Source of the DNA: Bacteroidota bacterium | GTDB taxonomy: Bacteria; Bacteroidota; Bacteroidia; 2-12-FULL-35-15 | DNA: 64,000 nucleotides | Direction: 5' to 3' | Assembly: GCA_025963725.1 (NCBI GenBank) | Contig: JAOQAE010000002.1 | Span: forward strand, 1,115,765 to 1,179,764 | Made by a program: the position numbers and the translations under genes | Notes under the pieces: generated by a model | Database searches by the model: none | Told to the model about the DNA's origin: nothing | Seen by the model: the letters and a program-made list of their open reading frames with translations, nothing else | Shown: in pieces, positions 30,952 to 46,839 of the stretch | How positions within the stretch are numbered: position 1 is the stretch's first letter | Layout of the letters: each line of letters starts with the position of its first letter

Positions 30952-30954
30952 GAT

Positions 30955-31635: not shown

Positions 31636-31691
31636 TAATTCCCGGCCTTACTATCATGCCCTAAAACTTTGGTATTTCGATAAACTCTGCT

Positions 31692-31699
31692 TATTTTTG
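31692..31699 (+). promoter_or_regulatory. Putative internal -7 box TATTTTTG
   Basis: TAnnTTTG match in the 87-bp gap upstream of pseB. Confidence 0.35.
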
Positions 31700-31722
31700 C
31701 CCATATTATAACCCAGAAAAAA

Positions 31723-32739
31723 ATGTTGGATCTAAACGGCAAATCAATCTTAATTACAGGTGGAACAGGCTCACTCGGAAAACATCTTACAAAGAATATC
31801 CTCGCCCAGTTTCCCAGCGTAAAACGTTTGGTTATTTTTTCGCGGGATGAGCAAAAGCAATTTGAGATGGCCCAGGAATACCCGGTATCCAAATATCCGG
31901 CGATCAGGTATTTTATAGGGGATGTTCGCGATTTCGACCGTTTAAAAAAAGCATTCAAGGACATTGAGATCATTATACATGCGGCAGCAATGAAGCATGT
32001 GCCCATTGCAGAGTATAACCCGATGGAATGTGTGAAGACCAATGTGCTCGGGGCTGAAAATGTGATCAATGCAGCATTCGATTGCGGGGTAAAAAAGGTG
32101 GTGGCGCTTTCCACAGATAAGGCTGCCGCGCCGATAAACCTTTATGGAGCCACCAAGCTATGCTCCGACAAGCTGTTTGTTGCCGCCAATAATATCAAAG
32201 GCCACCAGAACATTATTTTTTCAGTGGTGCGCTACGGAAATGTGATGGGCTCGAATGGATCGGTTATTCCTTTTTTCATGAAAAAGAAAAAAGAAGGCGT
32301 TCTCCCGATCACAGACCCGAACATGACCCGCTTTAATATTTCCCTGCAGGGCGGCGTGGATATGGTGCTGCATGCAATCGATACGGCATGGGGCGGAGAA
32401 ATATTCGTTCCGAAGATCCCTTCCTACAAGATCACCGATGTTGCGGAAGCGATAGCTCCCGGATGCAGGCAGGAAATTATCGGGATCCGCCCGGGAGAAA
32501 AGCTTCATGAAGAAATGATCACCTCCTCCGATTCTTTTTCCACTTACGATCTTGGAAAATATTATGCTATTCTGCCGCAGGTGCCTGCTTTTAAAACAGA
32601 GGACTACATCCGTCATTTTAATGCAAAGCCTGTTGCCCAGGGATTCCAGTATAATTCAGGGGAAAATAAAGAATGGGTAAGCGTTGAAGAAATGCGCTCA
32701 CTTATAAAAGAACATGTGAATCCTGATTTTTCCATTTAA
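31723..32739 (+). CDS. pseB: UDP-N-acetylglucosamine 4,6-dehydratase (inverting), PseB/FlaA1
   Basis: ILITGGTGSLGK, SRDEQKQFEM, FIGDVRD, HAAAMKHVPIAEYNPMECVKTN, STDKAAAPINLYGATKLCSDKLF, RYGNVMGSNGSVIPFF and IGIRPGEKLHEEMI closely follow H. pylori FlaA1 as I recall it. Confidence 0.9.
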   Translation: MLDLNGKSILITGGTGSLGKHLTKNILAQFPSVKRLVIFSRDEQKQFEMAQEYPVSKYPAIRYFIGDVRDFDRLKKAFKDIEIIIHAAAMKHVPIAEYNPMECVKTNVLGAENVINAAFDCGVKKVVALSTDKAAAPINLYGATKLCSDKLFVAANNIKGHQNIIFSVVRYGNVMGSNGSVIPFFMKKKKEGVLPITDPNMTRFNISLQGGVDMVLHAIDTAWGGEIFVPKIPSYKITDVAEAIAPGCRQEIIGIRPGEKLHEEMITSSDSFSTYDLGKYYAILPQVPAFKTEDYIRHFNAKPVAQGFQYNSGENKEWVSVEEMRSLIKEHVNPDFSI

Positions 32740-32744
32740 ATCCG

Positions 32745-33935
32745 ATGATGGTGAAAGCAGAAACAACCGAAAAAAAAATAATTCCTTATGGCCGCCAGGC
32801 TATAACAGACGCAGATATTGAGGCTGTGGTTTCCACGCTGCGTTCCGATTATCTTACCCAGGGCCCGGCCATACCGGAATTTGAAAAGAAGTTTGCTGGA
32901 TACGTGGGGGCGGAATATGCGGTTGCCTTATCCAATGGAACCGCGGCGCTGCACTTATGTGCGATGGCGCTGAATGTAAAACCCGGCTCGAGAGTGATCA
33001 CCACTCCCATTACCTTTGCCGCTTCTGCAAATTGCGTAAGGTATTGCGGCGGCGAAGTGCATTTTGCCGATATCGATCCGGATACATTCCTGCTCGATAT
33101 TTCTAAAGTAAAAGCCCTGCTCGAAAAGCATCCTGCAGGATACTTCCAGGGGATCATCCCCGTTGATTTTGCCGGCAATGCCGTTAATCTTGAAGCATTC
33201 CGCAAGCTTGCCGATGAGCACGGGCTCTGGATCATTGAAGATGCCTGCCATGCACCGGGAGGATATTTTACCGACAGCAAACAGGCAAAACAAAAATGCG
33301 GGAACGGCCGCTTTGCAGACCTTGCCATTTTTTCATTTCATCCTGTAAAGCATATTGCAACCGGCGAAGGCGGAATGATCACCACCAATAATAAAGCATT
33401 GTACGAAAAGCTTTTGCTGCTGCGCACCCACGGGATTACCAAAGATCCGTCAATGTATGAGAATTCGGAGGCTGATGTTGCGCAGGGCCCCTGGTATTAT
33501 GAAATGCAGGAGCTGGGATACAATTACCGCTTAACGGATTTCCAGGCGGCCCTGGGAACTTCACAGATGGAACGTGCAGATGAAAACCTGGAGCGAAGAA
33601 AACTGATCGCAAAAAAGTACGACAACACATTTTCAAATACCTCTTTTATAAAGCCATTGCCTGCGGAAGGACATGCCTACCATTTGTATGTGATCCAGGC
33701 TGCCGACAGATTGGGCCTGTATAACCACCTGAGGGCAAATAATATTTTTGCGCAGGTGCATTATGTGCCTGTTCACTTAATGCCTTACTATAAGCAATCC
33801 GGATTTAAAAAAGGTGATTTCCCCCATGCAGAATCGTATTACGACAAATGCCTCAGCATCCCAATGTACCACTCATTGCAGGAAGCCGACCAGCAACGTG
33901 TAATAGATACGATCCTGGATTTCGAAAAACATTGA
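32745..33935 (+). CDS. pseC: UDP-4-amino-4,6-dideoxy-N-acetyl-beta-L-altrosamine transaminase, PseC (DegT/DnrJ family)
   Basis: IPYGRQAITDADIEAV...YLTQGP N-terminus and the SFHPVKHIATGEGG PLP-lysine motif. It is adjacent to pseB. Confidence 0.85.
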   Translation: MMVKAETTEKKIIPYGRQAITDADIEAVVSTLRSDYLTQGPAIPEFEKKFAGYVGAEYAVALSNGTAALHLCAMALNVKPGSRVITTPITFAASANCVRYCGGEVHFADIDPDTFLLDISKVKALLEKHPAGYFQGIIPVDFAGNAVNLEAFRKLADEHGLWIIEDACHAPGGYFTDSKQAKQKCGNGRFADLAIFSFHPVKHIATGEGGMITTNNKALYEKLLLLRTHGITKDPSMYENSEADVAQGPWYYEMQELGYNYRLTDFQAALGTSQMERADENLERRKLIAKKYDNTFSNTSFIKPLPAEGHAYHLYVIQAADRLGLYNHLRANNIFAQVHYVPVHLMPYYKQSGFKKGDFPHAESYYDKCLSIPMYHSLQEADQQRVIDTILDFEKH

Positions 33936-33966
33936 AACGCAGTAATAAACTTTTTAATTTACCCAC

Positions 33967-34809
33967 ATGAACTTTAATTTCAAACCTGATAAGGAAGCCT
34001 TTGAAAAGGATGGTTACCTCCTGATCAAAAATGTGTTCTCAAAAGAGGAGATCGAACAGATCAGAAAGGATGCCTATACATCATTTGAGGAAGATAAAAA
34101 GAAGAACCTTACGTTCAGGCATGCGTCTAAAATGTCGAATGCCGTGTATGCAAAGGGCGATATCCTGAGCAAAGATCACCTGAGACATGTTCTTTTAGAT
34201 GAGCGGATCCTTTATCTTGTAAAAACCCTCTTGGGAAATAACCCTGTATACTGGGGCGATAGTAATTATCACTTTGGCACCGGCTTCCGCGGCTTTCACC
34301 GCGATAATATTGACCGTACCGATATGACCGCGCCCGATTGGGACGGCGATTACCCGATCGTACGGCTGGCGATCTATTTACAGGACCATAAAAACTATAG
34401 CGGCGGCTTAAAGGTTCGCGTTGGCTCTCATAAGAACCCCAGCGGAAAACCGGTGTTTATCGATAGCGAGGAAGGCGATGTTGCCATCTGGAATTTAAGG
34501 ACCATGCACAGCGGCAATGCCGTAAGACTTAAATTCTTTAAAAACCTTTCGATCAATAAAGCACGCAGGGAAGGCTGGATCCCGGCCTTTATGAAGAAAG
34601 ACCAGCAAAGGGAACGTGCAACCTTATTTATGACCTTCGGGCTTAAATCAAAACATCTCGACAGATACATTGAAAAGCACATGCTCGGAAGGGAAGATGT
34701 CCTGGGCTATCTGAAAGCTTCACGCTTTGACCCTAAGGTATTGGACCTTGCAAAGGAAAAAAATCTTGAGGTGCTTAAGCTTATTCCCGAATACGGATCA
34801 TTAGAATAA
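33967..34809 (+). CDS. Phytanoyl-CoA dioxygenase (PhyH) family Fe(II)/2-oxoglutarate dioxygenase
   Basis: FEKDGYLLIKNVFSKEEIEQIRKD N-terminus, a GFHRDN HxD motif, and a distal TMHSG His. Confidence 0.7.
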   Translation: MNFNFKPDKEAFEKDGYLLIKNVFSKEEIEQIRKDAYTSFEEDKKKNLTFRHASKMSNAVYAKGDILSKDHLRHVLLDERILYLVKTLLGNNPVYWGDSNYHFGTGFRGFHRDNIDRTDMTAPDWDGDYPIVRLAIYLQDHKNYSGGLKVRVGSHKNPSGKPVFIDSEEGDVAIWNLRTMHSGNAVRLKFFKNLSINKARREGWIPAFMKKDQQRERATLFMTFGLKSKHLDRYIEKHMLGREDVLGYLKASRFDPKVLDLAKEKNLEVLKLIPEYGSLE

Positions 34810-34813
34810 AGAG

Positions 34814-35515
34814 ATGGAATTAAACATTGGCAACCGCCAGCTATTTGCTGATATTGAAACGGAACGGACAAAAAAAATGGCCAGCCTCTGCTCGGACTCA
34901 TCCTTCGCAGAGAAGGATCTCCTGGCCGTTCTTGATACGTACAAAAGGCGGGAACCCGAAATAGAAAAAGCGCTGGCGTATGCTAAAACACTTGACTTTT
35001 CAAAAAACCATCTCCGCTCAAGCTATTTAAGCCACCCGATCCGGCTGGCAACTTTCCTTGTAATGATCGATCCGCAGATCGGCACCGACTATATTGTTAT
35101 TGCGCTGCTACACAATGTTCCCGAAACAACAAGCATAACCGCCGAAACGTTAACGGAACTGTTCGGGCCAACCGTTGGGTCGGGAATTAAGGCGCTTGTG
35201 GTGGACAGGAAAGCTGTATTCGCGGAGATCAGGAACGAATATTACAGGAATATTTTTGCAAAAGGCACTTCACTTGTGCTTGTTAAGCTGATCGACAAGA
35301 TCGACAACCTTTTTGTACTTGGCCTGAATGCTGATGATGCCGTGCGGAAGGAATACATTATGGAAATACGGGAAGAGCTTCTTCCCTTTGCCCGTGAATA
35401 CGATCAGCAGCTGGGCAGCTACCTTGAGCGCCTTTTAGAAGATACGGCAGCGCGCGGCTACTCAAAGGAGCTTAAAGACCAGCTGAACCAATACCAGGAA
35501 TCTATAAAACCATGA
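34814..35515 (+). CDS. SpoT/RelA-type HD-domain homolog with substituted catalytic residues (HN and ET in place of HD and ED)
   Basis: SHPIRLATFL...IALLHNVPETT...LFGPTVGSGIKAL...LVLVKLIDKIDNL parallels HPL.VA..L...AALLHDVVEDT...FG..V..LV...IKLADRLHN. Confidence 0.6.
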   Translation: MELNIGNRQLFADIETERTKKMASLCSDSSFAEKDLLAVLDTYKRREPEIEKALAYAKTLDFSKNHLRSSYLSHPIRLATFLVMIDPQIGTDYIVIALLHNVPETTSITAETLTELFGPTVGSGIKALVVDRKAVFAEIRNEYYRNIFAKGTSLVLVKLIDKIDNLFVLGLNADDAVRKEYIMEIREELLPFAREYDQQLGSYLERLLEDTAARGYSKELKDQLNQYQESIKP

Positions 35516-36294
35516 TGAACAAAAGAATTGCATTGATCGGGGGATCGAGCGCCGGAATAGGCAGAGCTATCGCGAACGGACTTCTTGAAAAAGGATTGAA
35601 TGTGATCATCACGGGGCGAAGCGCGAGGCTTGAAAGCACAAAGCTTGAATTACAGGCCAAATTCCCTTCCTCATCGGTGTATGCATTTGCCACTGATTAT
35701 TCTTCATCAGAAGACATCAGCCGGCTGATCGCATCCATTGAAGCAGCCGGGCTTTTCCCCGACGTGCTTGTATTGAATTCGGGAGGCCCGAGGCCAGGCA
35801 CCTTTGACGACATTTCCATTGAAGACTGGGATGCGGCATTCCAGCAGCAATTTAAAAGCTCCATCATGCTGATGAAAGCATTTTTACCCGGCATGAAAAA
35901 AAAGCAATGGGGAAGGATCATTAACATCAGCTCATCCATTGCCATCGAGCCTACACCGGGAATGATCCTTTCGGCAAGCTACAGGGCCATGCTGGTGAAT
36001 GCGCTGAAATCCACTTCATTGCTGGTGGCTAAAGACGGCATCACTATTAACACCTTATGCCCGGGCGCTGTTATGACCGACCGCTTAACCAGCTTGTTTC
36101 AGCAGCAGGCCGACACTGCAGGCAAGTCGCTCGAGGAAATTATAAAAAATGTTGCCGCCACTATTCCTGCACAGCGCATCGCTTCGCCCGAGGATTTTGC
36201 ACACATGGCTGTTTTTCTCGCCGCTGAGGAAGCCAATTATATAACAGGAACGGTGATCCCGGTGGATGGCGGGCTTGTTAAAAAGAGCTTCTAA
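35512..36294 (+). CDS. Short-chain dehydrogenase/reductase family protein (atypical active-site spacing)
   Basis: IALIGGSSAGIGRAI Rossmann motif and ...INTLCPGAVMTD. The expected YxxxK reads YRAML, so Lys is not at +4. ATGA overlap with the upstream gene. Confidence 0.7.
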   Translation: MMNKRIALIGGSSAGIGRAIANGLLEKGLNVIITGRSARLESTKLELQAKFPSSSVYAFATDYSSSEDISRLIASIEAAGLFPDVLVLNSGGPRPGTFDDISIEDWDAAFQQQFKSSIMLMKAFLPGMKKKQWGRIINISSSIAIEPTPGMILSASYRAMLVNALKSTSLLVAKDGITINTLCPGAVMTDRLTSLFQQQADTAGKSLEEIIKNVAATIPAQRIASPEDFAHMAVFLAAEEANYITGTVIPVDGGLVKKSF

Positions 36295-36303
36295 AAGGAC
36301 CAG

Positions 36304-37320
36304 ATGCATCTTTTCCAAAAAAATATTTTTTCAGAAAACACTCCGCAGTTCACAAGGCTGGAGAGCAGCTCTCAAAATGAGCTGGCTGCAGTTATCAATC
36401 GTCATTACCCCAGGCTTACTATCAGGGAAATAGCTGTAGCCGGCGCCTTTGAGATCAACAGCAATAACTGGAAAGTTGTGACGGATAACGGCACGTATCT
36501 TTTTAAGCGCTCCGATCTCAGCAAACTGGACGCATTAACTGCACAATCGGCGATCACTGCTGATCTAAAGGCGATGGGAATTCCTACACTGGAGTTTGTG
36601 CCGGACAGCGGGGGAAAGATCATTTGCAGCGACGGAAAGCATGCATACTGCCTGAGCGTGTTCCAGGAAGGGAATTACTTCGGCTCCTCGGAAGAACAAT
36701 GGAAAGAGCTGCTAACACATCTCGCGGCTTTATTTCAATCGTGCAGAACCATCGACGCAGGTAATTTTACCGGCATCCCTGTCCGCAGCTTTTTTACTTC
36801 AGAAGAAGATCAGCTTATCGACTTCCTGAAAACACTCCCTGAAATCAAACAAATCAATAAAGAACAGCTTGCCTTTGTAATAGCCGAGCATGAATTGCTT
36901 GCTCAAAAAAAAGATCCGCTGCCCGCGCCGGGGATCTTTCATGTCGATATCCATCCGCATAACCTTATCTTTAAGGAAAATCGCCTGGTGCTTTTAACAG
37001 ACTTCGAAGCTTTCCAGCTCACGGTGCCGGAAATAAGCCTTGGATTTGGCCTGTACAAATGCATGCGGCAGTTATTGGCGGTATGTGAAGAATCGGAAAG
37101 AGACAGTGCGATAAGGCGGGTGCAAAAAGAATGTGAAACGATCTTCAGCAGCCATACACTTTACGGTCTGCTCCAGCTCGGAAAAGCCGACGTCATCAAA
37201 AGAATACTTCACATCTTAAAAGAGTTAACCGAAACAGGGGCATCCCGCTGGCTTTTCGCCCTTGAGATCCAGCTTGCTTCCCTTTATGAAATCAATGCCA
37301 TCAGCAGGCTTTTAAAATAA
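36304..37320 (+). CDS. Aminoglycoside/choline-kinase-fold (APH family) small-molecule kinase
   Basis: FHVDIHPHNLIF matches the HxDxxxxN catalytic loop, and LLTDFE is the DFG-equivalent. Confidence 0.7.
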   Translation: MHLFQKNIFSENTPQFTRLESSSQNELAAVINRHYPRLTIREIAVAGAFEINSNNWKVVTDNGTYLFKRSDLSKLDALTAQSAITADLKAMGIPTLEFVPDSGGKIICSDGKHAYCLSVFQEGNYFGSSEEQWKELLTHLAALFQSCRTIDAGNFTGIPVRSFFTSEEDQLIDFLKTLPEIKQINKEQLAFVIAEHELLAQKKDPLPAPGIFHVDIHPHNLIFKENRLVLLTDFEAFQLTVPEISLGFGLYKCMRQLLAVCEESERDSAIRRVQKECETIFSSHTLYGLLQLGKADVIKRILHILKELTETGASRWLFALEIQLASLYEINAISRLLK

Positions 37321-37327
37321 TTTTATC

Positions 37328-38122
37328 ATGACTACAGATCTCAGCAACATTCACATTGCCACTATTATCGCCTGCAGGCTTAAATCAACACGGCTTCCGC
37401 GCAAAGCGCTGCTGAAGATAGGTGAGCTGCCATCCGTGGAATACTGCATAAAAAGCGCGCTGCAGTTTCAGAATGTAAGAACAACAGTGCTGGCAACTTC
37501 TACCGTTCCCGAGGATGCGGTCCTCGAAAAGCATACGTACAGCCCGGAAGTAAAATTTTTCAAAGGCGATCCGGAAGATGTAATGCAGCGCTACGTGGAT
37601 GTGGTCAACAAATACAATATCGATGTGTTTGTGAGGGTAACGGCTGACATGCCTTTCCTTTCCGATGAGATCCTGCAATTCCTGCTGCGCTCCCATTTTG
37701 AAAGCAAAGCAGATTATACTATCGGAACAAAAGCTGCCATCGGCACCAACCTCGAGATCATTAATGCTTCTGCGCTGATCAGGGCCAAAAGCTTTTTCCC
37801 GAATGCCGATTATTCGGAATATATGTCGTACTACTTCACTAATAATCCGGAGTACTTCAAGCTTAACCGGGTTGAGCTCCCGGAAGAGCTGGTAAGGGAT
37901 TACAGGCTGACGCTCGATTATGAAGAGGACCTGGTATTGTTCAACATCATTGAAGGGCATCTTTCAAAAAACAAGCTTGCGCCTTCCTTTAAAAATATTT
38001 TTGCCTTCCTGGACAACAACCCGGAGATCGCGAAGATCAACCAGTCGCTGCTCGTAAAATACACAGGGGATCCAACGCTGGTAGAAACGCTTAACAGGGT
38101 AACGAAGATCCCGAAGCCATGA
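37328..38122 (+). CDS. SpsF/NeuA-type cytidylyltransferase (CTP_transf_3), candidate CMP-nonulosonate synthetase (PseF role)
   Basis: IATIIACRLKSTRLPRKALLKIG N-terminal motif, as in SpsF-like cytidylyltransferases. It sits between the kinase and pseG. Confidence 0.6.
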   Translation: MTTDLSNIHIATIIACRLKSTRLPRKALLKIGELPSVEYCIKSALQFQNVRTTVLATSTVPEDAVLEKHTYSPEVKFFKGDPEDVMQRYVDVVNKYNIDVFVRVTADMPFLSDEILQFLLRSHFESKADYTIGTKAAIGTNLEIINASALIRAKSFFPNADYSEYMSYYFTNNPEYFKLNRVELPEELVRDYRLTLDYEEDLVLFNIIEGHLSKNKLAPSFKNIFAFLDNNPEIAKINQSLLVKYTGDPTLVETLNRVTKIPKP

Positions 38123-39594
38123 TGAAAAAAAAGAGGATGATATTCCGGGCTGACGGAGATCTTGTAGCGGGCTATGGCCATGTGATAAGGTCATTAAGTC
38201 TTGCTGCCATTCTTAAAAATAAATACCACTGCGTTTTTATCATCCGCTCGCCGGATGTTTTTCTGAAGAAACAGATCGCGGAAATATGCGATGAGCTGAT
38301 CGAGCTGCCGGGGAACGGGACCTATAAAACAGAGGCAGGAAGGCTTGCCAAGGAATTTATACAAAAAGAAGACATTGTGATCCTGGATGGATACGGCTAT
38401 GATGCCGCATACCAGTCAGCTCTAAAGCCGGCTTGCTTTAAGCTGGTTTGCATCGATGACATACATGACAGGCACTTCATTTCCGATGTGGTCATTAATC
38501 ACAGCGAGGGCATCAGGCGTTCGGATTATTCAGCAGAGTTCTATACAAAATTTTACCTGGGAACACAGTATGCTATTCTAAGGAAAGCATTCTTTGTAAA
38601 AAAAAGAAATTATTTACCTCTCAGCAACAACAAGCACCGGGTGTTTATAAATCTGGGCGGAACCGACCAGCAGAATTATACGCAGAGAGCGCTTCAGCTC
38701 TGCCTGGGAAACAAGAATATTCAATCAATAGATATTGTTACGGGAAGCTACTATAAGCACCTCGATGAGCTGAAGCAGGTGATCAGCGCGAATAAAAATT
38801 TCAAGATCAGGCTGCATTTCAATCTCACTGAAAAGCAAATGGCCGCATTAATGAAAAGGTCGGCTGCAGGCATCTGTTCGGCAAGCACGGTTTCTTACGA
38901 GTATTCATGCCTTGGAGGCATGTTATTTATTTACCAGACGGTTTCCAACCAGAAAAACATATACTCTTTCCTTATTAAAACCGGTTGTGCATTTCCGGCA
39001 GCCACATTCAACAGGCAGATCGCTGGTATGAGCGCTGCGGCTAAAAAAGAAAGTTATTTTATTAACCGCAGCCGCTACTTTTCCGGTAATTCGCCTGATC
39101 ATCTGCGATCCGTTTTTAAGCAACTGGAATCGGAGAGGGACATTACGATCAGGCAGGCTGCTCCCGGCGACCTGCTTACTTATTTCCGCTGGGCGAACGA
39201 CCCTTCCGTAAGGCAAAACGCCGTAAATACAGCTTCCATAGCCCTTGAGGATCATACAAAATGGTTTAAGGGAAAACTAAAGAACAAGGGGGCAAAGCTT
39301 TATGTAATAGAAAAAGCAAATACCCCGATAGGACAGGTACGTTTAGATAAAGCGGAGAACGGCTGGGAGGTGGATTATTCCATTGACAAAAAATTCAGGG
39401 GTAAAGGCTTTGGAGAGATCATTCTCAGGTTTGCGATCATTCAGTTCCGTAAAAAGCATTCCGACCCGGTGATCGCCAGGGTGAAGCGCATAAATGTAGC
39501 CTCCAATAAGGTATTCCTCAGGCTGAACTTTAAAGAGGATAAGGCACAAAAGATCGGCAGGGAGACCTACAAGTGCTATTCGCTTGAAGGATGA
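38119..39594 (+). CDS. pseG: PseG (UDP-sugar hydrolase) fused to a PseH-like GNAT N-acetyltransferase
   Basis: The N-terminus MIFRADGDLVAGYGHVIRSLSLAAIL matches the PseG start (FR.D....GxGH..R). The C-terminal region of about 160 aa, ITIRQAAPGDLLTYFRWANDP...IDKKFRGKGFGEIIL, is a GNAT fold. It is one uninterrupted 491-aa ORF. Confidence 0.75.
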   Translation: MMKKKRMIFRADGDLVAGYGHVIRSLSLAAILKNKYHCVFIIRSPDVFLKKQIAEICDELIELPGNGTYKTEAGRLAKEFIQKEDIVILDGYGYDAAYQSALKPACFKLVCIDDIHDRHFISDVVINHSEGIRRSDYSAEFYTKFYLGTQYAILRKAFFVKKRNYLPLSNNKHRVFINLGGTDQQNYTQRALQLCLGNKNIQSIDIVTGSYYKHLDELKQVISANKNFKIRLHFNLTEKQMAALMKRSAAGICSASTVSYEYSCLGGMLFIYQTVSNQKNIYSFLIKTGCAFPAATFNRQIAGMSAAAKKESYFINRSRYFSGNSPDHLRSVFKQLESERDITIRQAAPGDLLTYFRWANDPSVRQNAVNTASIALEDHTKWFKGKLKNKGAKLYVIEKANTPIGQVRLDKAENGWEVDYSIDKKFRGKGFGEIILRFAIIQFRKKHSDPVIARVKRINVASNKVFLRLNFKEDKAQKIGRETYKCYSLEG

Positions 39595-39624
39595 TGCGCT
39601 TATCTCTTTCTGCCAAAGTATTCT

Positions 39625-39632
39625 TACATTTG
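39625..39632 (+). promoter_or_regulatory. Putative internal -7 box TACATTTG
   Basis: TAnnTTTG match in the 64-bp gap upstream of pseI. Confidence 0.35.
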
Positions 39633-39658
39633 CATTTCACGTGCTTCAATAGCTAAAA

Positions 39659-40693
39659 ATGAGAAAAACAATTGATACCAATTTTTTCCGGATAGGTGCT
39701 GAACAGCCATGTTATGTGATCGCTGAAATTGGCAGCAATCATAACGGGAATTTTGATATGGCCTGTGAAATGATCGAAAAGGCGGCGGCGGCGGGAGTAA
39801 ATGCCGTTAAATTCCAGACCTTTAAGGCAAAGGAGCATTATTCAAAAAAAACCCCGAAGATCGGTTTATACAAGGAAGGCATTTATGAGCTGATCGAGAA
39901 GCTGGAGATCGACCGTACCTGGCATTCGAAGCTTGCCGCTGTATGCTCCCGCTCAAAGATCGATTTTTTAGACTCTCCCTGTGATCATGAAGCAATAAAC
40001 ATAGCTGTTTCGGTAGGCATGCCGCTTATTAAGATCGCATCTTATGACATGGTGGATGTAAGGCTCGTAAGTGAGATCGCGCGTACAGGAAAGAGCGTTA
40101 TGTTCTCAACGGGAATGTCGACCACCGCTGAAATAGAAGCCGCGGTAAATATCTGCAGGTCCAACAACAACGATAACATAATTATCCTGCAGTGCACATC
40201 CCTGTACCCTGCCCCTGCCCATCTCAGCAACCTGAAAGCGATGCACACCATCGCCAATATGTTCAATGTGATCACAGGATATTCCGACCATACCCTGGGC
40301 GATCATATTCCCTGCGCAGCTGTTGCCATGGGTGCCAAAGTAATTGAAAAGCATTACACGCTCGGCAGGGGGCTTCCCGGCCCCGATCATAATTTTGCCA
40401 TAGAGCCGGAGGAGCTGAAAATAATGATGGAACGGATCCGCGACATTGAAAGCGCGATCGGCGATGGGATCAAGAATGGCCCGCGTGCTGAAGAAATGGA
40501 GCTTTTTACAAAAGCCAGGAGAAGCATTATCGCAAAAAATAAAATAAGCAAAGGGCAGGTCATTGCCGAGGGCGATATAGTGATCAAACGGCCAGGCATG
40601 GGAATTCATCCTTCACAGATCGCTCTTGTAGTAGGAAAAAAAGCGTTGCAGGATATTGATGAGGACGAGCCTATAACATGGGAAATGATATGA
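39659..40693 (+). CDS. pseI: Pseudaminic acid synthase / NeuB-family nonulosonate synthase
   Basis: CYVIAEIGSNHNGNFDMACEMIEKAAAAGVNAVKFQTF, GYSDHTLG, and a C-terminal SAF domain (IAKNKISKGQVIAEGDIVIKRPG). Confidence 0.85.
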   Translation: MRKTIDTNFFRIGAEQPCYVIAEIGSNHNGNFDMACEMIEKAAAAGVNAVKFQTFKAKEHYSKKTPKIGLYKEGIYELIEKLEIDRTWHSKLAAVCSRSKIDFLDSPCDHEAINIAVSVGMPLIKIASYDMVDVRLVSEIARTGKSVMFSTGMSTTAEIEAAVNICRSNNNDNIIILQCTSLYPAPAHLSNLKAMHTIANMFNVITGYSDHTLGDHIPCAAVAMGAKVIEKHYTLGRGLPGPDHNFAIEPEELKIMMERIRDIESAIGDGIKNGPRAEEMELFTKARRSIIAKNKISKGQVIAEGDIVIKRPGMGIHPSQIALVVGKKALQDIDEDEPITWEMI

Positions 40694-41637
40694 GCAGGAA
40701 AAGAATATTGCTGTCAGGACTTGGTGGTTCCCTGTTCCCATACCTTCACAATAAGCTGAAGGAAACCTACGATGTTTATTATGTTGATGCAGACGCTTCA
40801 CTGAAGGAGCTTTACCCGGGCTATAATTTTTTCCCTGCCCCGCTCGTTACCGATCCGTCCTATCCATCTTTTATAAAAGAGCTCGTGGCAACTTATTCTA
40901 TTGAGCTATATGCCCCGCTGATAGATGAAGAGATCGAAATTGCCCATGACATTAAAGATCAGATCCCCTCGCTGAACCTCTTATCTCCCAAAAGAGATTT
41001 CTGCCGCCTGGCGATGCGAAAAGACCTGCTGATGAAAGCGCTCGAAGAGCACCGGATCTCCAGCATTGCCACCTGGACCGGCGATGAGTTCACATGGAAG
41101 GATGGTATTTACTTTGTGAAGCCGATCTCCGGCAGGGGAAGCCGGGGCATCAGAAGAATAACTTCGGAAGATGAGCTGAAGGCCTATTACCTGCTGGAAA
41201 ATTATGATCCGGCCGAGATCCTTGTACAGGAATGCATAGAAGGCCAGGAATACACCGTGGGCGTGCTTATCAACCAAACAGATGATATTATTCTTTTAAG
41301 CTCAAGAAAGATCCTGAAAAAGAAAGGCATTACCATAAAGGCGGTCACAGAACAAAATCCGGCCATAAGTGAAGCGATCCGGAAGATCAATCAGTGCTTA
41401 ACACCCAAAGGCCCGATCAATGTGCAGCTCTACATTACAAATGCCGGCGAGGTAAAGATCTTTGAAATAAATCCCCGGTTTTCCACCACTACCATTATGA
41501 GCTATGAAGCCGGGATCGATGAGATCGGGTTATGGCTTCAGCATCATGATACCCCGTATCAGGATAGCGCCATTTCCCCGGAAGATGGCCTTATACTTCA
41601 CAGAAGATGGGAAAATTTATTTTATGAGCAACGGTAA
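40690..41637 (+). CDS. ATP-grasp domain ligase
   Basis: YFVKPISGRGSRGI, LVQECIEGQEYTV and FEINPRFS motifs. Start placed at the ATGA overlap with the pseI stop. The alternative upstream ATG at 40678 is the one used in the ORF track. Confidence 0.75.
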   Translation: MSRKRILLSGLGGSLFPYLHNKLKETYDVYYVDADASLKELYPGYNFFPAPLVTDPSYPSFIKELVATYSIELYAPLIDEEIEIAHDIKDQIPSLNLLSPKRDFCRLAMRKDLLMKALEEHRISSIATWTGDEFTWKDGIYFVKPISGRGSRGIRRITSEDELKAYYLLENYDPAEILVQECIEGQEYTVGVLINQTDDIILLSSRKILKKKGITIKAVTEQNPAISEAIRKINQCLTPKGPINVQLYITNAGEVKIFEINPRFSTTTIMSYEAGIDEIGLWLQHHDTPYQDSAISPEDGLILHRRWENLFYEQR

Positions 41638-42508
41638 AAAAAACATATTGCTGGTTGGCGGCGCAGGTTACCTGGGCTCACATCTAAAAGAGCTCCTTTC
41701 TTTATACAATGTATTTTATACTTCGCGAACAAAAAAGCCAGGCGCGATCGAGCTCGACCTTTTGAAAAAGGAAACTTTTGATAACATTGCATCTGTTCCT
41801 TATGACCTGATCATCCTTCTTGCCTCATCCCTGAAAGGCCTTGGCACTTCTGAGCTGGATGCAGCATATCTCGATACCGATACTACAGGCCTCTCCGGCT
41901 TTCTGCAATTTATTTCCGTGAATAAGCTAAGCAGTAAGCTTATTTATGTTTCATCTATGACGGTGTATGGAAAGAAGGATCGCCTGCCTGTTAAGGAAGA
42001 CGCTGTTCCTGAACCGATCAGCACTTATGGATTAAGTAAAGTATTAGGTGAAACCATCTTTGGGTTTTACTGCAATTCAGGTGCTGCAAGGGGCGTAATT
42101 TTAAGGATCCCGGGAATCTATGGAGGACAAAGGAAGTCGGGCTTTATTTACAACACAGCAATGAAATGCGCCGGAAATGAGCCCCTGGAGATGGATACAT
42201 CCGGCCTCGGCTATTGGGAAACAATTCACATCCATGATCTTTCCACCTGGATCAGCGAATTCATACGCAATTATACCTGGGAAGAAAATATAAACACTTT
42301 TAATATCGGCTACGGGATCAAAACCGATTTTATTGAATGTGCAGGACTGATCAGGACAATGCTCGAGTCCTCCTCCGAAATACAGGTAAGGGGAGCAAAA
42401 GGGTATACCGACTTTTATCTCGATAATTCAAAAATAAAAAAATACGCTTCAGTTACAGACAACTATCAGGCATCGCTGAAAAATTATTTAAAGGGGTTTA
42501 GATCATGA
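41624..42508 (+). CDS. NAD-dependent epimerase/dehydratase family protein
   Basis: ORF 41504-42508 trimmed to the ATG at 41624, giving MSNGKKNILLVGGAGYLGSHL. YGLSKVLGE matches YxxxK. Confidence 0.75.
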   Translation: MSNGKKNILLVGGAGYLGSHLKELLSLYNVFYTSRTKKPGAIELDLLKKETFDNIASVPYDLIILLASSLKGLGTSELDAAYLDTDTTGLSGFLQFISVNKLSSKLIYVSSMTVYGKKDRLPVKEDAVPEPISTYGLSKVLGETIFGFYCNSGAARGVILRIPGIYGGQRKSGFIYNTAMKCAGNEPLEMDTSGLGYWETIHIHDLSTWISEFIRNYTWEENINTFNIGYGIKTDFIECAGLIRTMLESSSEIQVRGAKGYTDFYLDNSKIKKYASVTDNYQASLKNYLKGFRS

Positions 42509-43239
42509 ACTTTGTGATCGGTGATATACACGGGGAATTCACTAAGCTCAAAAAGCTTATAGAAAATATCCTTGCGCTCGAGAAAGACCCTACGCTTATC
42601 TTCATCGGAGATTACACCAATAAAGGAGAAGACCCTTACCAGACATTAAAGCTGCTGGCCGCGCTTCAGCAAGAAAAAGAATGTATTTTTTTAAGAGGGA
42701 ACCATGAGTATTTCTGGGAAGCGCTCACAAGCGATTCGGGAAAAGATGCGGAAGCATTAATGAAGTACGGGGCACAGAATACCATCTCGTCGATAGGCGG
42801 CAATCCGGGCCTTTGCGAAGCGAAAGAGCTGCTCTATTCGGAGTTTCCCGCTCTCTTAACGAACCTTCGCAGCTATTACCTTTCCGACAATTATGTAATC
42901 ACCCACAGCGGGATCCCACCTTCCGAATATGAAAATGAGCTTGATAAAATACCTGCTGATAAGTTCCTGTTCAACCGCTATGATTTCATAAGCCTTCAGA
43001 AGCTGTACCTGAACAGGAAAATTATTTTCGGGCACACCGGCTTTTACTCCCCTTTTTATGATGGATACAAGATCGGGATAGATACCGCAGCCTGTTACCT
43101 CGAAGACCAGCCGCTGACCTCATTTTGTACAAGTGACGACTTTTTCCTAAATTCCGCTAACCGTATTACGCGGTTATCCGAGATCGATCAATCCTTTTGT
43201 CCGGCAATACCCAGGGTTAAAGCCTGGAGGCAAAAATAA
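42505..43239 (+). CDS. Calcineurin-like metallophosphoesterase (PPP / ApaH-PrpE-like)
   Basis: FVIGDIHGEF, FIGDYTNKGED, LRGNHE and GHTG motifs. ATGA overlap with the upstream gene. Confidence 0.8.
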   Translation: MNFVIGDIHGEFTKLKKLIENILALEKDPTLIFIGDYTNKGEDPYQTLKLLAALQQEKECIFLRGNHEYFWEALTSDSGKDAEALMKYGAQNTISSIGGNPGLCEAKELLYSEFPALLTNLRSYYLSDNYVITHSGIPPSEYENELDKIPADKFLFNRYDFISLQKLYLNRKIIFGHTGFYSPFYDGYKIGIDTAACYLEDQPLTSFCTSDDFFLNSANRITRLSEIDQSFCPAIPRVKAWRQK

Positions 43240-43251
43240 AAACACAAAAAA

Positions 43252-43962
43252 ATGATAGAATTCCTGAAGAACAAAAGAATTATGGTAGTAGTTGCACATC
43301 CCGATGATGAGCTGCTTGGGCTGGGTGCCACTATTCATAAGCTGGTGCATGAGCACGGTGTAAAAACCCACCTTGTGATCCTTGGAGAGGGAATAACATC
43401 CCGCTCCGACCAGCGTGATGTTGAAGCCTGGAAAAAAGAGCTGGAGACCCACAAAAAAAACATTCATGCGGCAAAAGACAGCATCGGCTATCACACCGTA
43501 AGCATCCACGACTTTCCTGATAACAGGTTTGACAGCGTGGCCCTCCTCGATATCGTAAAGGTGATCGAAAAAGAAAAAGCTGCCTTTATGCCTGACGTGA
43601 TCTTTACACATCACGGAGGCGACCTCAATATCGATCATCAGCGTACCTTCGAAGCTGTTGTAACAGCAATAAGGCCGATGGAGCACGAGAAGGTATCGAC
43701 GCTGATCACCTTTGAAACACCATCGGGCACCGAATGGCGGGCCTCCACCGATCCACGGCACTTCATCCCCAACCTTTTCTTTGAAGTATCGGAAGACGAT
43801 CTCAATGCAAAGATCAGGGGAATGGAATTCTATGAATTCGAAAAAAGAAAATATCCGCATCCGCGTTCCCCTGAAGCGTTAAGGATCCAATGCCAGCGAT
43901 GGGGCGTGGCTGTCGGCAGGCAATATGCCGAAGCGTTCCACCTGGTAAGGCAGATCTGCTAA
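43252..43962 (+). CDS. PIG-L / LmbE family de-N-acetylase
   Basis: IMVVVAHPDDELLGLGATI zinc-binding motif, followed by HHGGDLNIDH. Confidence 0.8.
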   Translation: MIEFLKNKRIMVVVAHPDDELLGLGATIHKLVHEHGVKTHLVILGEGITSRSDQRDVEAWKKELETHKKNIHAAKDSIGYHTVSIHDFPDNRFDSVALLDIVKVIEKEKAAFMPDVIFTHHGGDLNIDHQRTFEAVVTAIRPMEHEKVSTLITFETPSGTEWRASTDPRHFIPNLFFEVSEDDLNAKIRGMEFYEFEKRKYPHPRSPEALRIQCQRWGVAVGRQYAEAFHLVRQIC

Positions 43963-43982
43963 GCCGGAATAAATAAAAATAG

Positions 43983-43990
43983 TATATTTG
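43983..43990 (+). promoter_or_regulatory. Putative -7 box TATATTTG
   Basis: TAnnTTTG match 29 nt upstream of the ATG at 44020. Confidence 0.4.
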
Positions 43991-44019
43991 AATTAACTAA
44001 TCCACTAAAACAATCACGT

Positions 44020-45234
44020 ATGAACATCACCCGCTCCATTTTGCTGCCTTTTTGCTTTTTATTATTATTCATCCCTGGCTTCCGGGCTCAAACATGGACC
44101 TCGCTCACAAGCGGCACGAGCGCAAGCCTTATCGGTGTTTGTGCGATAAGCAAGGATACTGTTTACGTTGGAGGAGCCAACGGCAAGATCATGAAAACAA
44201 CCAATGGCGGAGTAACCTGGGTCACGCAGACTACGCCAACGGCACAAACCCTGTACGGAATGGATTTTATAAACGGGAATGTGGGATTTGCAGCCGGGGA
44301 TAATGGAGCGATAATTAAAACCAGCAACGGAGGAGCTACGTGGACCAGCGTTTCCGTTACATCCAGCTCCCTTCGTTCAGTGAGGTTCATCAGCAGCACA
44401 ACGGGATTCATTACCGGTGATGGCGGCCTCATCCTGAAAACCACCAATGGCGGTACCACCTGGAGTGTTTGCTCTACTGGAATTTCCGATCCTATTTATG
44501 CTGTTTGGTTTATAGACCCAACCAACGGCTATGCCTCCTCCTTCAGCGGGGATCTTTTAAAAACAACTAATGGTGGCAGTACCTGGACAGCAAGCGCTAC
44601 GGGGGTATCGTCACAGATGAACACTATTTATTTTACCGATCCCAGCACCGGTACTTTTGTTGGCGCCGGCGGTGTGATCAGAAGAACAACAGATGGAGGC
44701 GTGTCGTGGGCGACCGTTACAATGACTCCCTCAGGCGATTTTCTTCATTCGCACACCTTTGTTAATTCCACTACCGGCTTTATTACCGGGGGAAACATCG
44801 GATCGAATATTGGTGTTATTTTAAATACTGTTGATGGCGGCTTAACATGGTCCACTTACCATCCGGGAACTGCACGGTTATGCAATGTCGATTTTGTAAA
44901 TGCAAATACCGGTTATGCAGTAGGATTGAACGGAACTATTCTGAAGTATACTTCCCCTATTGGGATTTCAGAACAGTCAGCTACGGCAAAAACACTTGAT
45001 GTTTTCCCTAACCCTGCGAAGAGCAGCTTTACGATCAGCACCACCGGGCTTGAGCTGGAGGGAACTGTTTACTTCGAACTTTTTGATGTTGCGGGCAACC
45101 TTGTAAAGAAAGAAGAGCTTGTAAACATTTCAAACCTTACTATTGAAAGAGGCAGCCTGGATGCCGGGATCTATTTTTTCACGTTAAGCACTAACGGGAA
45201 AGTGGCAGGAACAGGCAAAATAATATTTGAATAA
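44020..45234 (+). CDS. BNR/Ycf48-like beta-propeller with a type-A T9SS C-terminal domain (paralog of 27152-28399), embedded in the nonulosonate cluster
   Basis: Repeated TTNGG(V/A/T/S)TW blades. The C-terminal part ...VILNTVDGGLTWSTYHPGTARLCNVDFVNANTGYAVGLNGTILKY is nearly colinear with the 27152 protein. CTD: FPNPAKSSFTI...GIYFFTL...GKIIFE. Confidence 0.8.
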   Translation: MNITRSILLPFCFLLLFIPGFRAQTWTSLTSGTSASLIGVCAISKDTVYVGGANGKIMKTTNGGVTWVTQTTPTAQTLYGMDFINGNVGFAAGDNGAIIKTSNGGATWTSVSVTSSSLRSVRFISSTTGFITGDGGLILKTTNGGTTWSVCSTGISDPIYAVWFIDPTNGYASSFSGDLLKTTNGGSTWTASATGVSSQMNTIYFTDPSTGTFVGAGGVIRRTTDGGVSWATVTMTPSGDFLHSHTFVNSTTGFITGGNIGSNIGVILNTVDGGLTWSTYHPGTARLCNVDFVNANTGYAVGLNGTILKYTSPIGISEQSATAKTLDVFPNPAKSSFTISTTGLELEGTVYFELFDVAGNLVKKEELVNISNLTIERGSLDAGIYFFTLSTNGKVAGTGKIIFE

Positions 45235-45253
45235 AAAGCCGTAAAGCTTTTGA

Positions 45254-45298
45254 ATGCTAAAAGGCCGGAGTTCTCACTTTGGCCTTTTAGCATTTTTT
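45254..45298 (+). terminator. Rho-independent terminator
   Basis: tgctaaaaggcc-ggagttctcacttt-ggccttttagca stem followed by tttttt. Confidence 0.75.
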
Positions 45299-45357
45299 AT
45301 GAGCTGTTTAAACTTATAATTTGAATATCTTTAGCCCAGCAAATATCTTTTGCCACA

Positions 45358-46839
45358 ATGGGGATCATAGAAAAACAAGCTACTAAAAATGCCATTTACT
45401 CTTACCTGGGGGCTGCACTGGGATTTATTACCGTGATGTGGCTCTCGCATCTGCTAAGCACGGCAGAGAATGGTGTTGTCCGCATTCTTATCTCCTATAC
45501 CGCACTGATGGCCCAATTTGCCAACCTCGGCTTTGTAGCGGTTACCATCCGCTTTTTCCCGTATTTCAGGAACAAGGACAAAGGGCATCACGGATTTTTA
45601 TTTTATGCGGTCATCATTTCGCTTATCGGCTTTCTTTTATGCTGGATAATATTCTTCTTTCTTAAGCCGTACCTGATCAGCTCCAATGAAGCCAAGTCCC
45701 CTCTTTTTGTAACGTACCTGTTTTACCTGATGCCCTTAACTTTTTTTACGGTCTTCTTCAATATATTCGACAGCTACCTGCGGGCCTGCTACAGCTCCGT
45801 AGCAGGATCTCTTACAAAAGAATTTCTCCAGCGCATATTGATCCTGCTGGTGCTCTGCCTTTATTTTTTCGGGCTGATCAACTTCCCGGCTTTTATGTTC
45901 TTATACATACTTTTCACATGCCTTCCCACGCTTATGCTTCTTTTTTATATCGTAAAACAGGGGGAATGGCATATAAGGCCTGTACGTGGGTTTATGAGCA
46001 AAAGCCTGAGGAAGGAAATGATAAAGCTGAGCCTCTACTCTATTTTAACAGGCGGCGCCGGAGCTATTGTATTGAATATAGACGCTGTGATGGTTACCCA
46101 GATGCTTGGTGAAAAAAAGACAGGGATCTATGGTATTGCTTTTTACTTTGGCGCTATCCTTTTAATACCGGCCCGCTCCATTTACCGCATCACCTCCAGT
46201 ATTGTTGCCGAGCATTTCAAGGTTTCCCGCTTCGGCGAGATCCACAAGCTTTACAAGCAAAGCTGTAACAGCCAGCTTGCGATCGGCATGCTGCTTTATA
46301 TTGGCATCTGGTCGAATATTGATAACATCATGCAGCTGCTGCCGCCTGAGTACGGGCCGGGAAAAAATGTGATCCTCATCCTGGGCGCGGGTTATCTTGT
46401 GGAGATGGCAACAGGGATTAACCAGGTGATCATCTCCAATTCCACTTATTATAAATACGATACCTATTTCGTTTTTATTCTCGTAGGCATTATCGTTCTT
46501 ATGAACTATATATTTATTCCGATATATGGGATCATTGGCTCTGCCATAGCCACCGCTATTACAGTAACAATTGGAAATTTCATGAGGTATCTGCTGCTCT
46601 ATATAAAATATCAGATGCAGCCCTACAACATGAATACATTGAAAATACTATTCGTTGGTATTGTCTCACTTCTGCCCGGCCTTTTCATTCCCTATCTTCA
46701 CAACCTTTACCTCGACATAGCTGTACGAAGCAGCATTGTGGGCGGAATATTCATCCTGCTGACCTTAAAGCTGGAGGCCGCACCTGAGCTGAACCAAAAG
46801 ATCAGGAAAAACTTAAGGCGCTTTTCTATTGAAATTTAA
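45358..46839 (+). CDS. Wzx-like oligosaccharide flippase (polysaccharide biosynthesis protein, MOP superfamily)
   Basis: 493 aa, hydrophobic throughout (about 12-14 TM segments), with an N-terminus typical of Wzx. It sits in a glycan cluster. Confidence 0.7.
   Translation: MGIIEKQATKNAIYSYLGAALGFITVMWLSHLLSTAENGVVRILISYTALMAQFANLGFVAVTIRFFPYFRNKDKGHHGFLFYAVIISLIGFLLCWIIFFFLKPYLISSNEAKSPLFVTYLFYLMPLTFFTVFFNIFDSYLRACYSSVAGSLTKEFLQRILILLVLCLYFFGLINFPAFMFLYILFTCLPTLMLLFYIVKQGEWHIRPVRGFMSKSLRKEMIKLSLYSILTGGAGAIVLNIDAVMVTQMLGEKKTGIYGIAFYFGAILLIPARSIYRITSSIVAEHFKVSRFGEIHKLYKQSCNSQLAIGMLLYIGIWSNIDNIMQLLPPEYGPGKNVILILGAGYLVEMATGINQVIISNSTYYKYDTYFVFILVGIIVLMNYIFIPIYGIIGSAIATAITVTIGNFMRYLLLYIKYQMQPYNMNTLKILFVGIVSLLPGLFIPYLHNLYLDIAVRSSIVGGIFILLTLKLEAAPELNQKIRKNLRRFSIEI

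Follow-up and report, generated by a model that had tools for sequence, protein, structure and literature searches.

A run of four genes on one strand of a 64,000-nucleotide stretch of a Bacteroidota genome (contig JAOQAE010000002.1 of assembly GCA_025963725.1; this whole stretch is called the window) encodes, at positions 40690-43962, an ATP-grasp ligase, an extended short-chain dehydrogenase/reductase (SDR), a PPP-type metallophosphoesterase and an LmbE deacetylase. Together with the nonulosonate synthase gene directly upstream, they constitute a five-gene cassette that recurs in pseudaminic acid (Pse) clusters of at least 12 phyla. It is a tailoring cassette for a known sugar pathway. Its probable function is to exchange an acetyl group of a surface sugar resembling sialic acid for a different acid, an intermediate of the exchange being phosphorylated. 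New here are the displacement of one phosphatase by a non-homologous one, the dedicated subfamily of synthases, and a stand-alone ligase-phosphatase pair in Nocardiopsidaceae.

Occurrence and layout of the cassette

One genome per species was scanned with an alignment of the ligase, which yielded at least 567 relatives; 79 loci were returned, and all cluster proteins of the window were compared to them by tblastn. The order synthase, ligase, SDR, phosphoesterase, LmbE is kept in Bacteroidota, Limnochordia, Clostridiaceae, Desulfobacteraceae, Campylobacterota, Deferribacterota and a bacterium of the Candidate Phyla Radiation (CPR), and these cassettes adjoin homologues of PseB, PseC and PseG. 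The cassette order is found at 21 loci of the ligase clade A (described below), 19 of which are long enough to be judged. Among these 19, the phosphoesterase and the LmbE gene are present without exception (LmbE is adjacent in 17), the SDR is detected by tblastn in 17, and a synthase lies directly upstream in 15. A lack of co-occurrence with Pse genes was named in the initial annotation as a refuting outcome, and it is not what is seen: in many phyla, LmbE and the ATP-grasp ligase show a strong and specific linkage to genes of the Pse type. In the window's own genus the ligase is encoded in 3 of 24 other species genomes, and in none of the 16 genomes that represent further families of that class; the patchy presence within the genus is as expected for a variable surface-glycan trait. 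The cassette is also found in cultured strains, for example in Neolewinella aquimaris DSM 105137 and, as locus L007, in an Aquirufa isolate.

In several phyla, methyltransferase genes are inserted inside the cassette (L041 12712-13458, L049 11927-12658, L021 11776-12918, L023 11045-12256 and L066 864-2045). They encode either a TylF-type O-methyltransferase or a class I enzyme with a C-methyltransferase tail, and they suggest methylation of the new side chain where they occur.

The genes of the window (Table 1) belong to a co-directional run on the plus strand (30079-46839). The TGA stop codon of the synthase (40691-40693) overlaps the ATG of the ligase in an ATGA, the TAA of the ligase (41635-41637) is placed 14 nucleotides inside the SDR gene, and the SDR/phosphoesterase junction is again an ATGA overlap, while a gap of 12 nucleotides separates the phosphoesterase from the LmbE start. 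The SDR start at 41624 is in frame with a longer open reading frame (ORF) from 41504; the homologues begin at the site equivalent to 41624 (alignment A2). The overlaps reported earlier at 40690, 41624 and 42505 are all real, and the catalytic motifs of the four proteins are intact, so that all four look catalytically competent. The four genes are real: numerous genomes encode homologues of all of them, 40-80% identical and arranged in this order. A minus-strand ORF of 228 amino acids (43174-43860) overlaps nearly the entire LmbE gene; it is most likely a shadow ORF, since the LmbE frame is strongly conserved.

Two boxes of the form TAnnTTTG flank the cassette, one after the LmbE gene and one before the synthase, in a gap between genes of a kind that is rare in this cluster. 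The motif is not enriched across the window (51 matches versus 44 expected), and the two boxes are weak evidence that would fit a five-gene sub-operon at 39659-43962.

Table 1. Features of the cassette and its borders in the window
Feature	Positions	Strand	Protein	Description and family match
TACATTTG box	39625..39632	+		candidate -7 promoter element of the Bacteroidota type; the synthase start follows 27 nt downstream
Nonulosonate synthase	39659..40693	+		first cassette gene; non-canonical subfamily 'NeuB-X'; Pfam NeuB 269 bits, plus SAF domain
ATP-grasp carboxylate-amine ligase	40690..41637	+	P0001, 315 aa	PRK12767 / 'carbamoyl-phosphate-synthase-like' type
Extended SDR	41624..42508	+	P0002, 294 aa	nucleotide-sugar epimerase/reductase type; PF01370 82.6 bits
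PPP-type metallophosphoesterase	42505..43239	+	P0003, 244 aa	lambda-phosphatase/PrpA/PrpE-like; PF00149 61 bits (cut-off 21.5)
LmbE/PIG-L zinc de-N-acetylase	43252..43962	+	P0004, 236 aa	last cassette gene; PF02585 73.7 bits (cut-off 28.2)
TATATTTG box	43983..43990	+		precedes the next gene (BNR/T9SS protein); taken to mark the end of the cassette transcription unit

The encoded enzymes

The four proteins downstream of the synthase all exceed the curated cut-offs of their Pfam families. None of them reaches the cut-off of any NCBIfam equivalog model, and none has a close relative of solved structure by sequence comparison with the PDB. They are true members of their superfamilies without an assigned function.

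The ligase matches the Pfam families PF15632 (55 bits, cut-off 29.1) and PF02655 (54 bits, cut-off 23.2), its best Pfam match being the ATPgrasp_Ter family. Its structural model (predicted local distance difference test score, pLDDT, of 90.4) has a three-domain ATP-grasp fold. The Foldseek neighbours with a probability of 1.00 are the uncharacterised protein 2pn1 (template modelling score, TM, of 0.75), which is also the best PDB match by sequence, then the L-amino-acid ligases RizA, BL00235 and YwfE, and then PylC and PurK; biotin carboxylase is a further fold neighbour. Residues K144, E259, N261 and R263 are invariant in 18 sequences (alignment A1) and across clade A, clade B and the Nocardiopsidaceae ligases. 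We take them to be the lysine of the central domain, the E-x-N magnesium ligands and the arginine that follows, together serving in ATP/Mg binding. The Ddl model TIGR01205 gives 33 bits (cut-off 246), and no RimK model is among the best 25 of the 31 NCBIfam families matched. By the low Ddl score and the fold neighbours, the ligase is not an orthologue of RimK or Ddl, the families named in the initial annotation as those that would speak against its reading. The homologues number in the hundreds at 50-90% identity, and are mostly unnamed or labelled "carbamoyl-phosphate synthase large subunit". The databases contain one example each of the ligase fused to an extended SDR (P0125, 617 aa) and to a class I methyltransferase (P0126, 723 aa); these are either genuine fusions or artefacts of gene calling.

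A tree of 77 ligases was calculated by a quick IQ-TREE search with support values from the Shimodaira-Hasegawa-like approximate likelihood ratio test (SH-aLRT). Clade A (24 ligase rows, SH-aLRT 85) is linked to a metallophosphoesterase and clade B (48 rows, SH-aLRT 99) to an enzyme of the inositol-monophosphatase (IMPase) type, the two types of phosphatase following the two clades. The distant loci, in which the ligase is ~31-35% identical to that of the window, have the order ligase, SDR, X, LmbE, where X is an IMPase-family protein (PF00459, 129-147 bits) and not a metallophosphoesterase. Such loci are found in Bacillaceae, Syntrophomonas, Nitrospirota, Desulfobacterota, Verrucomicrobiota, Bdellovibrionota, Planctomycetota, Peregrinibacteria and a methanogen. 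The simplest reading of these sequences is that hydrolysis of a phosphate ester would be an obligatory step of the cassette, since two unrelated phosphatase folds fill one slot in two old branches. The phosphoesterase, the role of which had earlier been left unexplained, can be described as a core part of the cassette, with its slot taken by an unrelated phosphatase in clade B.

In the metallophosphoesterase, the metal motifs DxH, GD, GNH(E/D), H and GH are present; D7, H9, D36, H67, H134 and H177 are invariant in 13 sequences (alignment A4), and N66 is near-invariant (>=90%). The second motif reads GDY(I/T)(D/N)KG, without the canonical arginine of GDxVDRG. The scores lie under the equivalog cut-offs (given in brackets) for ApaH (46.5 bits; 176), PrpA/B (~31; ~330) and PrpE (26; 340), and an Atlas search with the protein gave PrpE-like clusters only. 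Among the models matched by the phosphatases of clade B, those of CysQ-type 3'-nucleotidases come first, at 120-134 bits and thus under the cut-off of 229. Inositol-monophosphatase and histidinol-phosphatase rank behind, the latter being second-best in 3 of the 4 clade-B phosphatases tested.

The ligase and the phosphatase are also found together outside the cassette. The 39 ligases of Nocardiopsidaceae form a clade (SH-aLRT 99) nested in clade B, and 33 of them adjoin an IMPase-type gene whose product is 44-51% identical to that of the cassette. These loci have no adjacent LmbE gene (weak LmbE-like matches are placed ~2.5 kb upstream in two of them), no SDR and no nearby Pse genes, and no real nonulosonate synthase was found in three Nocardiopsidaceae genomes, where only partial matches of 27-31 bits occur. 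The pair can thus work in the absence of a nonulosonate, and this arrangement supports the ligase and the phosphatase as the functional core of the cassette. The pair is located among the loci L024-L075 (for example L037 9935-11766), and its conserved neighbours (PEBP, HAD, DUF1707 and DUF3145) give no clue to the substrate.

The LmbE protein is the most conserved member of the cassette, with 80% identity to its counterpart in L002 and 69% to that of a Limnochordia locus. Its zinc-binding and catalytic residues, the AHPDDE motif (A15-H16-P17-D18-D19-E20) and the D128-H129 pair, are invariant in 20 sequences (alignment A3). With the BshB1 model it scores 33.4 bits, far from the cut-off of 182.5, and with BshB2 27.8 bits where 195 would be needed.

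The SDR retains the glycines of the GxxGxxG motif (G12, G15, G18) and a Ser-Tyr-Lys triad (S110, Y135, K139), all invariant in 20 sequences (alignment A2). In Foldseek its model (pLDDT 90.4) is matched best by small nucleotide-sugar enzymes, among them UDP-galactose 4-epimerases, GDP-4-keto-6-deoxymannose reductases and MoeE5 (TM of 0.75-0.82), and the fold includes a C-terminal substrate domain like that of nucleoside diphosphate (NDP)-sugar enzymes. The GalE model TIGR01179 gives 52.7 bits, below its cut-off of 262. The modelled folds of the SDR and the ligase reveal the general class only, not the substrate. At L009 10936-11810 (N. aquimaris DSM 105137) nothing but an ORF of 108 aa occupies the SDR slot. 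The three other genes, for the ligase, the phosphoesterase and LmbE, are intact there, with a bona fide PseI gene behind them. Loss or decay of the SDR gene is possible in this cultured strain, which could then serve as a natural test case.

The synthase of the window scores 281 bits with the PseI model TIGR03586 (cut-off 340) and 359 bits with the NeuB/NnaB model (cut-off 400), and the synthases adjoining the ligase in L011 and L027 likewise fail both models. Bona fide PseI proteins (454-503 bits) are found at the cassette loci L009, L021, L023 and L041, and L011 carries both a 'NeuB-X' type synthase and a PseI. In a tree of 35 synthases (with SH-aLRT support), the window synthase is in a clade of 21 rows (SH-aLRT 99), 20 of which are directly upstream of the ATP-grasp gene. 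This clade is sister to the PseI clade (SH-aLRT 92), and its branching mirrors that of the ligase tree. By these scores and the tree, the protein is not a canonical PseI and belongs to a sister subfamily placed almost only directly upstream of this ligase. The block had initially been described as lying directly downstream of pseI; a synthase gene does precede it, but its identity as a canonical PseI did not hold, the score being below the PseI cut-off and the clade a separate one. Since its clade adjoins the ligase and mirrors the ligase tree, the synthase travels with the cassette, and perhaps it co-adapts with it.

Proposed function and alternatives

LmbE enzymes deacetylate 2-acetamido sugars, and ATP-grasp enzymes form amides via acyl phosphates. 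In the Pse pathway, the acetyl group inherited from UDP-N-acetylglucosamine (UDP-GlcNAc) ends at N5, and swapping the acyltransferase cannot vary it. The scheme that we prefer, and to which we give an even chance of being correct, begins with de-N-acetylation; an amide would next be formed in an ATP-dependent reaction that has a phosphorylated partner, and the phosphate would finally be removed, while the SDR acts on a nucleotide-sugar-like intermediate. The LmbE protein would strip an N-acetyl group from an intermediate of the Pse pathway, the likeliest target being the UDP-GlcNAc-derived acetyl at N5 of the final sugar. The ATP-grasp enzyme would form the new amide, one of the two partners being phosphorylated, as expected if the phosphatase is obligatory. 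That phosphate would be taken off by the metallophosphoesterase here and by the IMPase-family enzyme in the sister clade, and a hydroxyl, located either on this intermediate or on the newly added side chain, would be oxidised, reduced or epimerised by the nucleotide-sugar-type SDR. That the cassette has a synthase subfamily of its own, and that both synthase types are present in L011, hints that at least part of the remodelling takes place close to condensation, and the substrate may be the hexose that precedes it. As for the acid, 3-phosphoglycerate is a speculative candidate; after dephosphorylation it would give an N-glyceroyl group, which fits known Pse structures.

The N-acyl exchange by deacetylation and religation proposed in the initial annotation is partly supported: it has gained the linkage to Pse genes and remains the simplest reading, because the ATP-grasp enzyme is the only acyl-adding enzyme of the cassette. 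The Nocardiopsidaceae pair makes it less certain that a sugar amine must be the direct substrate of the ligase. Two other ideas were rejected: formation of an acetamidino group, as the cassette contains no amidotransferase, and the ligase as a replacement for PseH, as a GNAT (PseH-like) protein is still detectable in 21 of 32 cassette loci.

Several observations weigh against the exchange scheme. The CysQ likeness of the clade-B phosphatase hints at the phosphate of a nucleotide and not at that of a phospho-acid. Since the Nocardiopsidaceae pair occurs without a nonulosonate synthase, the ligase and the phosphatase may act on something other than a sugar amine, and our confidence that the amine partner is a sugar is lowered. 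The ligase residues conserved in Pse contexts are also conserved in Nocardiopsidaceae, a comparison of little power because the Nocardiopsidaceae ligases are nested in clade B. A simple acyl swap leaves the SDR without a clear role, and its modelled fold points to nucleotide-sugar chemistry. Finally, the congruence of the synthase and ligase trees could come from transfer of the block as a unit and not from functional dependence.

An alternative that we consider unlikely is that the cassette mainly changes the sugar backbone. In this case the SDR would epimerise or reduce a UDP-hexose and the special synthase would condense a non-standard aldose, giving a stereoisomer or a 7-hydroxy relative of Pse, with the phosphatase acting on a sugar phosphate and the ligase and deacetylase being secondary. 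The likeness of the SDR model to NDP-sugar 4-epimerases and 4-ketoreductases (TM ~0.8), the position of the synthase clade outside PseI with failure of both equivalog models, and the coexistence of the two synthases in L011 are consistent with such a role, and new nonulosonate isomers keep being found (PMC5595891). However, it leaves the amide ligase and the deacetylase, the two most conserved members, without a role, the cassette is found behind a bona fide PseI in L041, L049 and L012, and the 6-deoxy hexoses of the pathway lack an obvious phosphate site. It is distinctly less probable that the ATP-grasp enzyme joins a carboxylate, namely C1 of the nonulosonate or that of an acyl side chain already present, to an amino-alcohol phosphate (for example ethanolamine phosphate or serinol phosphate) with subsequent dephosphorylation, on the model of Cj1438/Cj1435 of Campylobacter jejuni, and that LmbE works separately. 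Carboxylate amidation would explain a pair without a sugar amine in Nocardiopsidaceae, and histidinol-phosphate phosphatase, whose substrate is an amino-alcohol phosphate, is one of the relatives of IMPase; but the cassette has no enzyme to make such a phosphate, the C-terminal domain of Cj1438 is a different, TupA-like ATP-grasp, and the tight linkage to LmbE is left unexplained. We know of no report of a C1-amidated pseudaminic acid, which also counts against it, whereas a ligase and a phosphatase in a surface-glycan pathway do offer a direct biochemical precedent (PMC11800379).

Very unlikely, in our view, is that the pair makes a free metabolite of an unrelated pathway, for example one that resembles a nucleoside or is linked to inositol, as has been suggested for other pairs of an ATP-grasp and a phosphatase, the position among Pse genes reflecting shared regulation or transfer and not chemistry. 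The occurrence of the pair alone in ~33 Nocardiopsidaceae loci, the ATPgrasp_Ter match of the ligase and the CysQ-like phosphatase of clade B could be so explained; elsewhere, however, the pair sits among Pse genes in the same order, translationally coupled, in at least 12 phyla, and the nesting of the Nocardiopsidaceae clade within the Pse-linked clade B makes the stand-alone pair the derived state.

Surrounding locus, related systems and significance

Upstream of the cassette are genes for a Maf/MptE-like protein, a hexapeptide acyltransferase, PseB, PseC and a block of PhyH, HD, SDR and APH kinase genes, followed nearer the cassette by a cytidylyltransferase, a PseG-GNAT fusion and the NeuB-family synthase. 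The PseG half of the fusion scores 193 bits (equivalog cut-off 154). Downstream are a BNR protein sorted by the type IX secretion system (T9SS) and a Wzx flippase. Given the surrounding Pse genes, the T9SS-sorted BNR protein and the flippase, the host is, as judged from gene content, a member of Bacteroidota with a Pse-type surface-glycan locus.

Some of these neighbours deviate from the canonical families. The cytidylyltransferase (37328-38122) matches no PseF model in NCBIfam, its best matches being KdsB-like and under the cut-off, and the GNAT half of the fusion (38119-39594) scores 30 bits for PseH (cut-off 93). Both may be adapted to a modified sugar; the PseF of Tannerella forsythia is likewise reported as inactive on plain Pse5Ac7Ac (PMC5378307). 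The block between pseC and the cytidylyltransferase (33967-37320), with a PhyH dioxygenase, an HD-domain protein, a classical SDR and an APH-type kinase, is whole in L002 and L003, partial (HD, SDR, APH) in L007 and absent from the other cassette loci; since it is present in so few of them, it is a separate, rarer add-on. The hexapeptide acyltransferase at the head of the cluster (30955-31635) has 'phosphonate metabolism, transferase hexapeptide repeat' as its best NCBIfam match (153 bits, cut-off 202), with the Vat and CatB acetyltransferase models ranking lower. Outside the window, ~93 kb upstream of the cassette in the same contig (positions 1060997-1064722, locus L081), there is a NeuB-NeuC pair: a synthase of the bona fide NeuB/NnaB type (482 bits, cut-off 400) with a NeuC-type hydrolysing UDP-GlcNAc 2-epimerase directly after it (394 bits, cut-off 236). 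The host probably makes two different sialic-acid-like sugars.

In mycothiol and bacillithiol biosynthesis, the phosphatase MshA2, an LmbE-type deacetylase (MshB/BshB) and an ATP-dependent ligase (MshC/BshC) are employed. The cassette shares with these routes a phosphatase step, de-N-acetylation by the LmbE family (PF02585) and ATP-dependent ligation of an acid to the freed amine. It differs in that its LmbE is not an orthologue of the bacillithiol enzyme (far below the BshB1 cut-off), its ligase is an ATP-grasp and not a cysteinyl-tRNA-synthetase-like enzyme, and it is placed in a nonulosonate pathway and has an SDR, whereas the thiols are built on GlcNAc-inositol or GlcNAc-malate. With the canonical route to CMP-Pse (PseB, PseC, PseH, PseG, PseI and PseF of Helicobacter pylori and C. 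jejuni) the window has PseB, PseC, the PseG-GNAT fusion, a synthase and a cytidylyltransferase in common, although the synthase, the GNAT and the cytidylyltransferase are below the equivalog models, and that route has no counterpart of the four cassette enzymes.

No paper characterising the cassette emerged from full-text searches that paired either pseudaminic or legionaminic acid with an ATP-grasp, an LmbE protein, a deacetylase or a phosphatase; one apparent LmbE match was the accession number LMBE00000000 and not the protein. Partial parallels are available. In the HS:2 capsule of C. jejuni, the C-terminal ATP-grasp amidoligase of Cj1438 uses a phosphorylated partner and the phosphatase Cj1435 then removes the phosphate (PMC11800379). 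This is likewise a ligase-phosphatase pair within a glycan cluster, but there it is the sugar, glucuronic acid, that contributes the carboxylate, an amine phosphate serves as its partner, the enzymes are a TupA-like ATP-grasp and a HAD phosphatase, and neither a deacetylase nor an SDR is involved. In the sfmABCDE operon of Shewanella oneidensis, which also begins with a PseI-like synthase, deletion of the ATP-grasp SfmE lowers the mass of the flagellin glycan (PMC3765264), which is genetic evidence that SfmE is responsible for a part of this nonulosonate-type decoration; SfmE is, however, a 412-aa ATP-grasp_4 protein of another family, and the operon lacks LmbE and phosphatase genes. A legionaminic-acid-like cluster of Ca. 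Kuenenia stuttgartiensis likewise contains a deacetylase, accompanied by a formyltransferase; free-amine and re-acylated CMP-sugars were detected, and the N-acyl exchange thus precedes glycan transfer (preprint 10.64898/2026.04.20.719630). There the formyltransferase re-acylates, and neither an ATP-grasp nor a phosphatase or SDR is described. The genes aciA-E for acinetaminic acid were rejected as a parallel, as the paper on them assigns families only to AciB and AciE (both short-chain dehydrogenases) and offers no tie to the cassette.

Pseudaminic and legionaminic acids are sialic-acid mimics on the flagella, capsules and S-layers of many bacteria, including pathogens, and their N-acyl decorations shape immune recognition, phage binding and lectin binding. 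N-glyceroyl Pse has been found in T. forsythia, Vibrio vulnificus and C. jejuni with the responsible genes reported as unknown, and the same is reported for the Pse-modifying enzymes behind Pse5Am7Gra of T. forsythia (PMC5378307, PMC6120980). For the best-studied case in Bacteroidota, the enzymes of N-acyl decoration are likewise described as unknown and as "a major challenge" (PMC5378307, PMC6388019). The cassette is a concrete, widespread and testable candidate for such enzymes; the active sites encoded by its five genes are intact, and its two independent types of phosphatase point to a phosphorylated intermediate. It may even be a general route of N-acyl remodelling that moves horizontally, draws its acyl group from a phosphorylated central metabolite (for example 3-phosphoglycerate) and has its own synthase subfamily with a specialisation for the remodelled precursor, which we regard as quite improbable in this full form. 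If true, the cassette would supply the long-missing genes for hydroxy-acyl decorations, such as the N-glyceroyl group of the T. forsythia sugar, and would define a new ligate-then-dephosphorylate rule for bacterial sialic-acid mimics. Once its chemistry is worked out, nonulosonate structures would become predictable from genomes, and enzymes for making modified sugars would become available.

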